Positions 49,042-58,262 of a DNA stretch of 64,000 nt are shown here, one piece after another (the stretch's first letter is position 1; each line of letters begins with the position of its first letter). The stretch lies in sequence record NC_135730.1. One strand, 5' to 3'. The notes beneath the pieces are model-generated. The model was not told the origin of the DNA and made no database searches. It saw nothing but the letters and a program-made list of their open reading frames with translations. Position numbers and translations under genes: made by a program. The DNA comes from a phage.

Positions 49042-50523
49042 TTACTTAGCGTACTCGATTAATTCCACAGTTTTCCCAAAGCTCGGGATATAATTTTTAT
49101 TATACCCCTCAGTGAGGACCCATAGAGTATCGTACTTTTTCCACTTGTTGTCAACAACCTTTTGTTCAAAGTTATGCTCAAAGTATAGGTCGGTCAGGAC
49201 GATGACATCTTTTGCATTTGGTATGTTGGCATCCAGATACTCGAACACGCAAGCAGCTGTTGTTCCCCATGTCGAGTGGACCTCATAGTTGATCATTTCG
49301 TCTATGTTGCCGCGAGTGTATACTTTAACCTCTCCAACCTCAGTTGACCAACAGAACATTGTAACCTTAAATTCTTTATACAGATTGCACAATCCGGTGA
49401 TTTCATTGAACATTTTCTTTAAAGTTCTTTGAGAGATCGAGCCAGAAACGTCTAAAGCCACCACAATATCTATAGTGTTTTCCGGATTACGACCAGGAAC
49501 AATAACGTGCTGGTTCTTGTTTATAGCTCCGACTTTTCGCATTGTGCTGGTCAAAGACCCAGATCGGCGACCAGGTTTTCTGTAGGTCAGTTCAGCCTTT
49601 CGTTTAGACAACATGCGTTGCTTGATGATGTCTATATAATTGATTACAGGCTTACCTCTATTCTTGACAAACTCACGAACCGCCTCAGGGCAACGACCTC
49701 CGGAAGCTTGCATTGCTGCCTCAAGCATGTCACCAGAGTCCTGCATGGCCTGATCTTTATCAGATTGGCTGATTACAGGTTGTGGCTGATCATACCCCAT
49801 AGCCTTTCCAAGATCATCACTGGTGCCACCGTTCCCACTCATGTGATCATCGGTTTGTCGCTTATCTCCTTGAGAGTTCTCACCTTTACCGCTCTTACTT
49901 TTACCGTTATTCTGATCTCTTTGCTTATCAAGAACTGCATAGACGTTCTCAGCAATCCATCCATGAAACTTCATGTCGCAGTAGCAGTTAGCTAAGAAGC
50001 CAAAAGGCTTGCCTTTCACGAACGTAGTGCTTTTCCCCTTCGGGAAGAAAACACAAGGAGGCTTGCTAAAGTCAACCACAAGACCTGTGTTGATAACGTG
50101 ATCACAAGCAATATTGAACAGTTCCGGCTCAAAGCTTTTACCACGGACCAGGTGATCACAGATAATATGCCCCACCTCATGTGACAGAAGGAAGGCCACC
50201 TCTTTCACAGATTTTGGGGAATAGAAAACTTCAGCCATCTCAAACTGCTCGTCAGTTAGAGAAGCCTTAAGAATAGCCTTGCGTTCATCAGCCAATCCCA
50301 TAATGAACTCAGGGCTGTAATAAATGCGTTTATGGTCGGTTGCCATGGTGGAGCACCATGTGTGGTTTTCTACGAACTGCAACCCTGACAGCAGTGTGCC
50401 ATAAAACGGCAGCTTTTCAAGGAGATACATACGTGCAGCCTGCAACATTCTCAGGGCATCATCTTTCTGTGAGGCAATGATTTCTGAACTTCTGCTATCC
50501 ATTAAAACTCCAGAAGGGGCCAT
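49042..50523 (-). CDS. metallopeptidase-like / VWA-like domain protein (DUF2201-type)
   Basis: N-terminal HEVGHIICDH (HExxH zinc-peptidase motif); C-terminal IDIVVALDVSGSIS (VWA MIDAS-like DxSxS). Confidence 0.55.
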   Translation of the reverse strand: MAPSGVLMDSRSSEIIASQKDDALRMLQAARMYLLEKLPFYGTLLSGLQFVENHTWCSTMATDHKRIYYSPEFIMGLADERKAILKASLTDEQFEMAEVFYSPKSVKEVAFLLSHEVGHIICDHLVRGKSFEPELFNIACDHVINTGLVVDFSKPPCVFFPKGKSTTFVKGKPFGFLANCYCDMKFHGWIAENVYAVLDKQRDQNNGKSKSGKGENSQGDKRQTDDHMSGNGGTSDDLGKAMGYDQPQPVISQSDKDQAMQDSGDMLEAAMQASGGRCPEAVREFVKNRGKPVINYIDIIKQRMLSKRKAELTYRKPGRRSGSLTSTMRKVGAINKNQHVIVPGRNPENTIDIVVALDVSGSISQRTLKKMFNEITGLCNLYKEFKVTMFCWSTEVGEVKVYTRGNIDEMINYEVHSTWGTTAACVFEYLDANIPNAKDVIVLTDLYFEHNFEQKVVDNKWKKYDTLWVLTEGYNKNYIPSFGKTVELIEYAK

Positions 50524-50535
50524 TGGCCCCTGTCA

Positions 50536-51513
50536 TTATTTAACGTGTTTGAAAATACCTGCCAACTCGGTCATTGTCATGCGGGTGGTCTTCATAAGAT
50601 CTGTCATAGCTTTCTCCATAATTGGAGATACTACCATAAAGTTTCCTTTAGTGAAACCTTTATTCCAGTCGGTCACCAACAGTGGTTTAAGTCCAGCTCC
50701 GAGACGTTCACCAGTTAAAGCACAGCATTTGCGAATATACGAACTCTTAAATTGGCTGAACGACAGATCAACTTTCATACCTGCATCGTAGAACGTTTGA
50801 CAATAGAAAGTGTAAGCCTTAGCAATCTCAACATCATCAGGCAGTGCAGGAACTTCTTCTGCAATCTCCTCTTCGACCTCCTGAGGATCTTTTTCCTCTT
50901 CAGAGTTCTGTTCTTCAATTTCTTCTGCCACAGTCTCGTTTACGATGTCTGAAATGTGTTTGTTGGCTGCACGATCAGCCATGAAATTTTTAAAGTCCTG
51001 CATTGGTGACATATCTTCCTCCTCTTCGTCAAATAGTGCTAGTTTATCTTCTTCTGTCCCGTATTGCAAGATGAAATCTTCAAAAGTATAATCACCTTTC
51101 AATTTCTCCATACGCTCTTCGCTCAGGTGGAGCATCATCTGCTGGACAATTTTTCGATCAGTTTTGTCTTTAATCAGGATTGCAGTCTTTTTATCTACCA
51201 GACAGTCTTTCAGAGCATTGCACCTCAACCCTACCACACAACAATTATCAATTGCGTAAGGACCTTCATCATCTATCCGCTCCAGAGATGGGTAGAAAGG
51301 ATTTCCCAGTCCGTTTTCATCTGTGTGCATGTCGAAAGGTATAAGGGTGTAGTCGCATACCCCCTCCCCTAAAAGTTTTTTACCAAATAGGAGGTATTCT
51401 TCCCACGACAGGTCGAACTCTATATCTCGTTTCCGTGCATTATTCTGTTTGCGTCTATATTTTTTGAGCAGGCGCTCTAACTCTTCTGGTGTATAATATT
51501 TTTCAAGATTCAT
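50536..51513 (-). CDS. HNH-like endonuclease domain protein with acidic linker
   Basis: PSLERIDDEGPYAIDNCCVVGLRCNALK resembles the SIDRID...GY...N...C..CN..K HNH variant; ATG 51513 with RBS GAGAGA preferred over track TTG 51579. Confidence 0.4.
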   Translation of the reverse strand: MNLEKYYTPEELERLLKKYRRKQNNARKRDIEFDLSWEEYLLFGKKLLGEGVCDYTLIPFDMHTDENGLGNPFYPSLERIDDEGPYAIDNCCVVGLRCNALKDCLVDKKTAILIKDKTDRKIVQQMMLHLSEERMEKLKGDYTFEDFILQYGTEEDKLALFDEEEEDMSPMQDFKNFMADRAANKHISDIVNETVAEEIEEQNSEEEKDPQEVEEEIAEEVPALPDDVEIAKAYTFYCQTFYDAGMKVDLSFSQFKSSYIRKCCALTGERLGAGLKPLLVTDWNKGFTKGNFMVVSPIMEKAMTDLMKTTRMTMTELAGIFKHVK

Positions 51514-51544
51514 GAGTTGTCTCTCGTGCTCTGTAGGTGAAGAA

Positions 51545-51573
51545 ATCTTATCAAGTGCCTCGACAGATGTCAA
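51545..51573 (-). promoter_or_regulatory. divergent promoter for the minus-strand block
   Basis: On the minus strand TTGACA -17- TAAGAT; its -35 forms an inverted repeat with the plus-strand -35. Confidence 0.4.
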
Positions 51574-51586
51574 CCTCAAAAACGTG

Positions 51587-51615
51587 TTGACTTTACTATA
51601 AATCTACGATATAGT
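51587..51615 (+). promoter_or_regulatory. early promoter for the plus-strand block
   Basis: TTGACT -17- TATAGT, 40 nt upstream of ATG 51656. Confidence 0.55.
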
Positions 51616-51655
51616 GCACCCATTCGAAAGAAAACGAACACAGGAGCACTTAATC

Positions 51656-52555
51656 ATGGCAAATCTTAACAGCTTTAGCACTCGGTGGAAACAAGATATC
51701 ACAACCAATCTCTCAGCAGGTGATATCCTTTCTGCAATTTACGAGGCTTTGGATGATAAAGCTACTTCAAAATCGGTTTGTACCAACCCCCTAATTCCTA
51801 TAGTGATGAAGGTGATTGAGCGTAGATTGGTATCTGGGTCTGATAAGTGGACATATTTAGATAATGAAGGACACACCTATTCCAACGGGTATGTCGATAT
51901 AAAAGTAGAATACGCGGTATCATACCGCCGGAGCGGTTCTGTGACTTTCAACTTTTCTGGAGGTTTCCGATCTCTGGCAACTTCACCTTTTGTTTCCTCA
52001 GAAGAGAAGTTTGAACTTCCGTTCCTTTGGATGATGGCTAACGCGACAGGAAAAACCCCCGTGAGTATTCGCGTAAAATACAACTACAACGGGTCCAGTA
52101 AGATATATGCCGAGAGTATCTCAGCAAGTTTTTATTTTGTGATGGGAGATGGAATCCTCAAGCATATAAAGATGTGCGATATGCACGATGTTATAAATGA
52201 AGTGACTGATAAGAATGTTCTGGTGAAGGACCTCAACAATTTCTATACACCTGGAGACTATTACGTCAACCGCCCACTGTGCATCTTTAATGCCGCACAC
52301 CCTTTGGGTGAATACCTGATCGTTAATAGTGACATTGCTAACAACATTTTTGAACTGGCAAGAGTACAAAATGAGGTATTGACATCCTGCAAGAGTGGTG
52401 ATAAATTCACTGATGAAGAGATGGGCGTTTTAGAAATGATGGGGTATAAATGCAGTCTTTGGGTAGATGAGGTGTTTAATGACTACATCTACGGACAGGA
52501 TATTTACCCGTTAAAGAAGTATACTGATACAAGTTTAATTTATGCGGGGATTTGA
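51656..52555 (+). CDS. hypothetical early protein
   Basis: ATG 51656 preceded by AGGAG and promoter 51587-51615; track GTG 51614 lies inside the -10 element. Confidence 0.4.
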   Translation: MANLNSFSTRWKQDITTNLSAGDILSAIYEALDDKATSKSVCTNPLIPIVMKVIERRLVSGSDKWTYLDNEGHTYSNGYVDIKVEYAVSYRRSGSVTFNFSGGFRSLATSPFVSSEEKFELPFLWMMANATGKTPVSIRVKYNYNGSSKIYAESISASFYFVMGDGILKHIKMCDMHDVINEVTDKNVLVKDLNNFYTPGDYYVNRPLCIFNAAHPLGEYLIVNSDIANNIFELARVQNEVLTSCKSGDKFTDEEMGVLEMMGYKCSLWVDEVFNDYIYGQDIYPLKKYTDTSLIYAGI

Positions 52556-55772: not shown

Positions 55773-56273
55773 GTGAAAATTAAGATCTTTGCTATTATTT
55801 TGAGCGCATTTTTATCGCTGCCTGTTGTTGCAGCACCAAAACAAAAAGTATATCATACTTGCAAGCCCTCAGATACTAAGGAAAACATTCTGGCATGCAA
55901 TATCTACAGGGAGGCTAGAGGGGATGGCACGATGGGTATGCTGGCATCCGGGTTTGCCACACTAAACAGGAAATCTCACCCCAAATACCCAGACACTATA
56001 AGAAAGATTGTCTACCAACCTAACCAGTTTTCGTGGACAAACCACGGCAAAACTTTTAAGGTGACAGAAAAAGATTCATGGGATCACGCTAAAAGTCTTG
56101 CAAAGATGCTTCTAAAGGTCTATAATAACAACCATGTTGCATACATGGCTATGGACATAACAGGTGGAGCAACACACTACCATACAACCAAAGTACGACC
56201 GAAATGGGCAAAAAAGATGCAGAGGACAGCTCAATTCGGGAGTCATATCTACTACAAGGAGCGCAATAAATGA
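55773..56273 (+). CDS. secreted cell-wall hydrolase (SleB / Hydrolase_2-like)
   Basis: N-terminal signal peptide MKIKIFAIILSAFLSLPVVAA; family-like motifs NIYREARGD, QPNQFSW, GGATHYH; GTG start. Confidence 0.55.
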   Translation: MKIKIFAIILSAFLSLPVVAAPKQKVYHTCKPSDTKENILACNIYREARGDGTMGMLASGFATLNRKSHPKYPDTIRKIVYQPNQFSWTNHGKTFKVTEKDSWDHAKSLAKMLLKVYNNNHVAYMAMDITGGATHYHTTKVRPKWAKKMQRTAQFGSHIYYKERNK

Positions 56274-57389
56274 TTGTAAACAGTAATGAAACTAAAGCAG
56301 TACTAACCGGAAATATGGAGGTCACCAGGGGCTCAATTTCTCTGAACAAAGAGACTTTTGGGCTAATCATTAAAGGGATTTACGAAGATAAGGTGCTGGC
56401 AAGCTGCCGTGAACCAATCTTCAATGCTGTGGACTCTCATGTTGAGTCTGGACGGGGTGATGTGCCGATCATTATTCACTCTCCTACAGACCTTGAACCA
56501 TACTTCTTTGTGCAGGACGTTGGATTGGGCATGTCAGAAGAGATGGTCCGCAACACTTTCATGAACCTCGGTGAGTCAACCAAGCGCAACAGCAACGCTC
56601 TGGTTGGCAATAAAGGTGTTGGTTCAAAGGCTCCGTTCAGCATGGTGGACACTTTCGATGTTATCAGTGTGCACAATGGTATTGAAAGCACATATCTATT
56701 GTTCTTGGATCAGGGTATCCCAAACGTTACCAAGATCCGCGAGCGGAAGACTGAAGAGCACAACGGGGTAAAAGTTCAGTTCCATGTTAAGAAAGAGCAT
56801 GTCCTGAAATATCGCACTGCTATTGCATCGTGCTTACGCTATGCGAAGTTTCCGTTCATCGTCACCGATCCCATGACCAGTAAGATGTTAGAAGGTGACA
56901 AGGTTGAGGCACAGTATCATTACGAGAAGGATGGCTGGAAAATGACCATCCTGAAAGGTTATACCAGTTCTGATGAGAGCCGTGTTGTGATGGGTCACCA
57001 ACCTTACCGCTCCAAGTTCCTGGAGACATTGACCGATTACCCTGCAATCTGCGTGGAAATTCCTATTGGGGATTGCAATATTAACCCTGGGCGTGAATGG
57101 ACCATAGAGGGCCATGACGACGGTGGATTCCAGGATCGCCTGGAGGCATTTGTCAAAGAAGGTATACGTCTTCGCGGGGCAGAAGTTGTTGCAGAACTGG
57201 AGACGGCAAAAACCTCCGCAGAAGCACGTGAAATGATGAAGAATAGTGGAGTGTTCGGACACATCTTCGGCAAGAACTTTATGTGGAACCGTTGGGAAGA
57301 AACAGGGCTTGGCGACTTAGGCGATTGTGAAATTTTCGCTGGCGGCTTAAATAAAGGCCGCATAGGCTATGCTTGTTACGGAAAGTCGG
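56270..57389 (+). CDS. GHKL-family (Bergerat-fold) ATPase, N-terminal portion; 3' end runs into the assembly gap
   Basis: N-box REPIFNAVDS (ExxxNAxD), G1 box DVGLGMS (DxGxG), G2 box GNKGVGSKAPF; ORF continues into the N run at 57390. Confidence 0.5.
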
Positions 57390-57399
57390 NNNNNNNNNN
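57390..57399. other. assembly gap (10 N)
   Basis: Run of ten n characters in the sequence. Confidence 0.99.
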
Positions 57400-58262
57400 A
57401 GTTCTTACGAGGTGTATACCTTGTATTTAACGACGGAGACGGCAAATATAACCGGAATAAGTGTAACTACTTAAGCGAGATCACCGGACGCAACGTTTTC
57501 TATTGCCGGAACACGGATCTGGTGAAAGAGTTTAAAGAGGCGGCACACCATCCGTTCTTTGCAGATACGGTCAAATTGTTATCGGAGCTTCCACGCCGAC
57601 CTGCGAAGAAAGGTGAAACCAAAACTCGTTACGAGCCAGGCTACTGGGTTAAGAAGCTTAGAGAGGATGGCTACTTCCATCGTGAGCGCCTCACGAAGGC
57701 AGAGTTCAAGAAGATTAAGCATTGCATCCCTTATGAGGGGGATATCCAACGGGGAAGCTGCTGGCTGGGCCAGATGAGTAACATCTACCAGCAAAATTAT
57801 GACCGTGTGCGTGCTGCACTCCAGATTCCTGAAGGTGAAGATCTGTACCTGGTATCAGAATCTCGTCTGCTTTGGACTGATCCTGATTGCCAGTATGTTA
57901 CAGAGAAGAATGTGGAACATTTGTTGAAAGAGGATGCTTGGAAATTCTTACTGACTCGCGCAGCAAATGAAACTTCATATGACAGCCTGTATAGACAATT
58001 AGGGAAAATTATCCCCATGCAGGATTTTGGAAATTATCGGCCACATTTCCACAAGTGGGAAGGTAACACCGCGTGGAAGCACAGTGAGCTAAATCATCGT
58101 GCCAAAATCTTAATCGCCAACCGGGTTAAGTGCGGGAAGGCCTATATTGCAAGATTGGAAAAGAAATATCCACTTTTGAAGCATGTGGGCTTGAAATATT
58201 GGGACACTCCTGCTATGATTGAATACCGTGAACTGATCGATACAAAGAATAACATCAAATAA
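57400..58262 (+). CDS. hypothetical protein, post-gap portion (possibly the C-terminal part of the GHKL ATPase gene)
   Basis: Open frame from the gap to the stop at 58262; reading-frame relationship to the upstream ORF cannot be determined across the gap. Confidence 0.35.

Follow-up and report, generated by a model that had tools for sequence, protein, structure and literature searches.

The window, that is, the whole 64,000-nucleotide stretch analysed here (sequence record NC_135730.1), belongs to an rV5-like coliphage of the genus Vequintavirus. The 2.1 kb around the site share 97.8% identity with Escherichia phage rV5, and nearly all of the 117 near relatives of this region are Vequintavirus coliphages. 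A 100% match to the 2.1 kb was found in GenBank MG065659 (MG065659.1), an unannotated record titled 'Campylobacter phage C5' whose sister records carry the UNVERIFIED flag; set against a sequence typical of E. coli Vequintavirus, its Campylobacter host label is doubtful. GC skew places the genes between ~44 kb and 51.5 kb on the minus strand, with plus-strand genes on either side. The 142 bp from 51514 to 51655 form the only divergent intergenic region within the window, and they contain two predicted sigma-70 promoters placed back to back; because the strand blocks meet here, the pair lies at the sole divergent junction. We also considered a replication origin at the GC-skew minimum near 52 kb, and this was rejected because the skew tracks the direction of transcription and no repeats are present.

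The features of the junction are as follows.

50536 to 51513, minus strand: gp11 homologue (rV5 ORF 11) from the open reading frame list, 325 aa, ATG at 51513..51511, first gene of the leftward operon.
51520 to 51525, minus strand: GAGAGA, a weak putative Shine-Dalgarno-like sequence read from the sequence, 6 nt 5' of the gp11 ATG.
51538, minus strand: leftward transcription start (A) predicted from the hexamers, 7 nt 3' of the -10 element.
51545 to 51553, minus strand: extended -10 element TGA TAAGAT of the leftward promoter (rV5 'P11'), with the TG at 51553-51552.
51568 to 51573, minus strand: -35 hexamer TTGACA of the leftward promoter, read from the sequence.
51574 to 51586, no strand: segment between the -35 boxes, CCTC-AAAAA-CGTG, read from the sequence; 13 bp here and 12-14 bp within Vequintavirus and its sister clade.
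51587 to 51592, plus strand: -35 hexamer TTGACT of the rightward promoter (rV5 'P010'), read from the sequence and given in Table S4 of PMC3606486.
51610 to 51615, plus strand: -10 hexamer TATAGT of the rightward promoter, read from the sequence.
51622, plus strand: rightward transcription start (A) predicted from the hexamers.
51642 to 51646, plus strand: Shine-Dalgarno sequence AGGAG of gp10.
51656 to 52555, plus strand: gp10 homologue (rV5), 299 aa, ATG at 51656, first gene of the rightward operon.

The leftward operon would extend from gp11 to gp26, and the rightward operon from gp10 to gp1 and then on through rIIA. The gp11 homologue matched PHROG 3118 (E = 8e-111) and gave weaker matches to PHROGs annotated as Srd and 'decoy of sigma70'; its relatives include T4 Srd and proteins sharing an endonuclease VII/HNH-type fold. 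We know of no DNA-operator role for this Srd/HNH-fold family. Public names for the protein disagree ('anti-sigma factor/Srd', 'HNH endonuclease' or 'anti-termination'), and one record starts it at an upstream TTG (51579), giving a minus-strand open reading frame (50536-51579) that crosses the promoter; gp11 annotations using this start read through the promoter and need correcting. The protein resembles a tandem duplication of a single domain, its N-terminal part (R..EF.LT...CDYT..PF...YP..ERID..GY..GN) and C-terminal part (Y.RK.C.LTGE.L...K.IL..D...GF.K.NF) being alike, and the histidine of the active HNH motif is apparently substituted (ERID). The gp10 homologue belongs to no Pfam family and matched PHROG 12338 (function unknown); its label 'alpha 1-3 fucosyltransferase' in some records has no Pfam support. 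Two neighbours also call for care in annotation: a DUF2201 metallopeptidase and VWA protein (49042-50523, minus strand) is called 'HNH endonuclease' by PHROGs and RefSeq, and the rIIA homologue (56270-58262, plus strand) is split into two apparent open reading frames by a 10-N assembly gap at 57390-57399, beside which the sequence is 99.8% identical to rV5 rIIA.

Both hexamer pairs are present as the first-pass annotation had described them: TTGACA-17-TAAGAT on the minus strand (51573..51568 and 51550..51545) and TTGACT-17-TATAGT on the plus strand (51587-51592 and 51610-51615). To that description we add the extended -10 TG of the leftward promoter. Each promoter matches the sigma-70 consensus at 10 of 12 positions, with an imperfect -10 element in both cases (TAAGAT and TATAGT). 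The two are strictly back to back, with the -35 boxes 13 bp apart and facing outward, the -10 elements 59 bp apart and the predicted starts, 51538 (minus strand) and 51622 (plus strand), 84 bp apart, so that the predicted transcripts do not overlap. The corresponding leaders would be 25 nt to the gp11 ATG and 34 nt to the gp10 ATG.

This promoter pair is already known, having been predicted for rV5 since 2013 as P010 and P011 (Kropinski et al. 2013, Virol J 10:76, PMC3606486, Table S4). The sequences listed there are CAAAAACGTG-TTGACT...TATAGT for P010 and TTGACA...TGATACGAT for P011 (PMC3606486), and the feature 'Sigma70-type promoter; P11' of GenBank DQ832317 maps exactly onto positions 51545-51573 of the window. 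The locus between the gp10 and gp11 homologues, the layout of four hexamers and the 17-nt spacers are the same, whereas the leftward -10 element is TACGAT in rV5 and TAAGAT here, and a few spacer bases also differ. In both the rV5 paper and the present analysis the promoters are predictions; the inverted repeat, the central A-tract and the conservation in other genera, on which that paper is silent (PMC3606486), are considered below. Our literature search on transcription in the Vequintavirinae found no study of start sites, RNA-seq or expression timing; in PMC13250531, the subfamily appears only in a plating assay.

Are these hexamers functional? They could be chance matches, with the operons starting elsewhere or needing a modified polymerase. 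Consensus-like matches are indeed frequent in this genome: 38 sites in the window match the sigma-70 consensus at 10 or more of 12 positions, many of them intragenic, compared with 16.6 +/- 4.2 in first-order Markov simulations. A consensus match alone is therefore weak evidence, and a T4-late-like motif is present in rV5 for other genes. However, no other match at this threshold occurs within the intergenic region to provide an alternative, and no phage RNA polymerase has been reported for the related phage CB7. The 64 kb contain a single back-to-back pair (gap 0-30 bp), located in the sole divergent intergenic region, precisely where two promoters are needed; only 5.5% of simulated 64-kb sequences contained at least one such pair anywhere.

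Conservation weighs against chance. We aligned 16 sequences: 12 from Vequintavirus genomes and four from metagenomic relatives with ~65% identity in gp11. Among the 12 Vequintavirus genomes, the four hexamers vary in 1 of 24 columns and the two 17-nt spacers in 21 of 34 (Fisher p = 5e-6); the rightward -10 element TATAGT is constant, whereas its spacer varies at 12 of 17 columns. Across all 16 sequences, the rightward -35 box is constant, and the leftward extended -10 element retains its TG and its TA...T. In the clade with ~65% gp11 identity, the spacers cannot be aligned, yet AGTCAAC, GTTGACA, the T5 tract and the TG are all present, and the -10 elements (L004-L007) are in place as TATTCT, at the same spacing on the rightward side, and TGnTAATGT. 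Beyond these clades, back-to-back promoters with the same architecture were found at the orthologous divergence in every genus examined (Seunavirus, Mydovirus, Avunavirus, Henunavirus, Certrevirus and Phapecoctavirus), and TTGACA of the gp11-side promoter is the sole block that stays invariant when 30 sequences covering at least six genera are compared. Conservation that is specific to the hexamers and extends across genera is characteristic of functional promoter elements, and we consider it very improbable that these matches arose by chance. The description of the site as divergent promoters is thus borne out by position, orientation, distance to the start codons, hexamer-specific conservation and the published rV5 annotation, and both promoters are very likely real. 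That the promoters act 'early' can reasonably be inferred from the strong host sigma-70 consensus together with the genes that the operons carry (rIIA, a MoxR-type ATPase and many small open reading frames).

The first-pass annotation had further proposed that the -35 boxes form an inverted repeat that could serve as a shared operator for a regulator that switches the two operons. The arms GTCAAC (51569-51574) and GTTGAC (51586-51591) do lie 11 bp apart, as it reported, the hexamers proper being 13 bp apart; the functional reading of the repeat was not supported. Each arm consists of a -35 box and the G preceding it. Since two outward-facing TTGAC boxes produce a 5-bp inverted repeat by construction, only the sixth base requires comment. 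Of the 21 TTGAC-type matches in the window, 10 have this base, a G directly ahead of TTGAC, and the same G belongs to the early-promoter consensus TGTTGAC of Certrevirus (PMC7344957); the extension of the palindrome to 6 bp thus follows from a Certrevirus-type TGTTGAC arrangement. The symmetry ends there, because the next outer bases are T in the left arm and T in the right arm and do not pair. The 271 bp around the site contain 13 inverted repeats of 6 bp, so the palindrome is unremarkable against chance, and a local repeat scan for iterons or longer dyads near the site returned only trivial 6-bp repeats.

In the operator model, a dimeric regulator of the phage or the host would bind GTCAAC-N11-GTTGAC, cover both -35 boxes, and shut off or switch the operons. 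The model has some appeal, given that the 6-bp repeat is perfect, that an inverted TCAA...TTGA pair is retained across genera, and that one dimer over two -35 boxes would be an economical shut-off. Against it, a search tolerating one mismatch found no second copy of the motif in the window. At the orthologous junction of other genera, the second -35 box reads AATCAA, ATGCAA, CTTCAA or AGTCAA, the first three representing decay of the left arm, and the bases between the arms are unconserved except for the A/T tract. From one genus to another the half-site distance shifts by 10 or 20 bp, and inside a clade it changes by +/-1 bp, a variability beyond the tolerance of most rigid dimers. A Pfam scan (E <= 0.01) of the 33 mostly small orphan proteins of both operons within the window revealed no helix-turn-helix or other DNA-binding domain, although a novel binder could still be hidden among the small, family-less ones. 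Taken together, these observations leave a shared operator with little credibility. The repeat very probably has no function of its own and represents two (G)TTGAC boxes on opposite strands.

Between the -35 boxes, the one conserved element is the central A5/T5 tract (51578-51582), which occupies positions -44 to -40 of both promoters and is thus exactly midway; its T5 form is the tract retained in the clade with ~65% gp11 identity. The proximal UP-element subsite has the consensus AAAAAARNR, and TCAAAAACG of the rightward promoter fits 7 of its 9 positions. A Fis site over the A-tract, inspected by eye, was discarded since the central W-rich core is missing. The putative early-promoter consensus of Certrevirus, AAAA(N3-4)TGTTGAC(N17-19)TATAAT (Buttimer et al. 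2020, PMC7344957), was defined in a genus other than that of the window, and the rightward promoter nevertheless fits it as AAAA-ACG-TGTTGAC-T-N17-TATAGT, with A-tract, TG and TTGAC. The leftward promoter departs from it, having GG before TTGAC and a T-tract on the non-template strand where the consensus has TG and an A-tract.

The predicted leaders were also examined for RNA elements. Neither has significant RNA structure (folding z-scores +0.44 and -1.08), and an Rfam scan of 51000-52200 identified no family; its group II intron match was dismissed as sub-threshold (E = 0.42). The first ~20 nt past the rightward -10 element (GCACCCATTCGAAAGAAAAC, within 51616-51641) are constant in the 12 Vequintavirus genomes while the nearby spacer varies freely, and this block is not accounted for by RNA structure or by any Rfam family. 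The gp11 homologue of Seunavirus, Mydovirus and Henunavirus has a leader in which ACGGG-N5-6-CCCA is retained immediately before the Shine-Dalgarno sequence (L008:1955-1975; L010/L011, about 1955-1975; L013, about 1950-1975; L084-L092). Its GGG and CCC are constant and its loop varies (AACAA, TAAGA, ATTGT, AATAA), so it could be a small conserved hairpin; the element is absent from the genus of the window.

The distance between the two -35 hexamers differs among genera in a discontinuous manner. Our survey of junctions, which included a metagenome scan with a 6-sequence alignment, gave 3 bp in Seunavirus, Mydovirus, Avunavirus, ChuuTotoro, Certrevirus (CR3, phiTE), phAPEC8 and A5-4, 4 bp in Henunavirus, 12-14 bp in Vequintavirus and its sister clade, and 23 bp in phage SSBI34; gaps of 5-11 or 15-22 bp were not observed among these junctions. 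Clustering near 3, 13 and 23 bp weakly suggests helical phasing, with both boxes on one face of the helix, and hints that the two promoters are not fully independent. Similar geometry occurs at other sites. At a second divergence in rV5 (genes 81/82; rV5 66724-66744, outside the window), we noted TTTCAA-GTG-TTGACA with a 3-bp gap, including a candidate promoter TTGACA-17-TGnCAGGAT for gene 82; the rV5 paper found no bidirectional promoter at this junction (PMC3606486). Back-to-back -35 boxes with a 3-bp gap are also present in the relative L050 (about 560-580). An attempt to find further second divergences through the RnlA homologue was abandoned, as most IMG/VR matches came from unrelated phages whose copy of the gene does not border a divergent junction.

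We therefore weighed a model in which the two polymerases affect each other and selection keeps the -35 boxes in a fixed helical register. The possible routes are competition for the A-tract or upstream DNA, interference of the kind seen at lambda PR/PRM, and mutual help through supercoiling by divergent transcription. Since the two polymerases must share part of their upstream contacts, a degree of interplay between them is plausible. In its favour are the occupied gaps (3, 4, 12-14 and 23 bp) and the empty intervals between them, the retention of the 3-bp gap across genera with 25-40% identical gp11 and otherwise unalignable intergenic DNA, the A5 tract exactly midway, and a predicted start distance of 84 bp, near that of lambda PR/PRM. 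However, the pattern comes down to about two independent 10-bp jumps, which makes its nominal probability (~0.01-0.09) a post hoc figure; shifts of +/-1 bp (12, 13 and 14; 3 and 4) are tolerated, and genome compaction could by itself explain the 3-bp gap. On balance we regard such coupling as unlikely, though more probable than either a shared operator or chance matches. Its most specific form, a module in which polymerases on the same DNA face compete or cooperate through the shared A5 tract, seems somewhat less probable still.

Comparison with known divergent promoters further defines the pair. The start sites of lambda PR and PRM are ~82 bp apart, close to the 84 bp predicted here, and both systems consist of divergent, non-overlapping sigma-70 promoters. 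In lambda, polymerase bound at PR inhibits PRM (PMC3167631). Lambda, however, has three 17-bp CI/Cro operators in and between the promoters and an adjacent repressor gene, whereas the present pair, in a phage group described as lytic, has neither repeated operators nor a repressor recognisable among the 33 proteins scanned; the dyad ends with the -35 boxes and the G before each, and the half-site spacing varies among relatives. The symmetry-driven bidirectional promoters of Warman et al. (2021) reportedly have overlapping -10 elements and starts ~18 bp apart. The pair in the window resembles them in divergent transcription from elements that read similarly on both strands, but here the -35 boxes face each other, the predicted starts are 84 bp apart and no symmetric -10 element is shared, the two -10 elements occupying 51545-51550 and 51610-51615.

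We consider it highly probable, judging from the sequence comparisons above, that the site comprises two ordinary host sigma-70 promoters, back to back where two divergent early-type operons begin. Upon entry of the phage DNA, the host sigma-70 polymerase would engage each -35/-10 pair, and both promoters would fire outward from starts ~84 bp apart, the leftward one aided by its extended -10 TG. The A5 tract would probably provide an UP-like contact for alpha-CTD, at least at the rightward promoter, and the arrangement would presumably operate without a dedicated regulator.

Beyond annotation, the significance of these results is small: the 2013 prediction for rV5 now has comparative support. 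In practical terms, the 142-bp region would offer a ready, strong bidirectional promoter cassette for E. coli. The clustered gaps between the -35 boxes (~3, 13 and 23 bp) pose a question on polymerase-polymerase interplay that is cheap to test. If the promoters were indeed coupled, the coupling would set the balance of the two early operons without a dedicated regulator.
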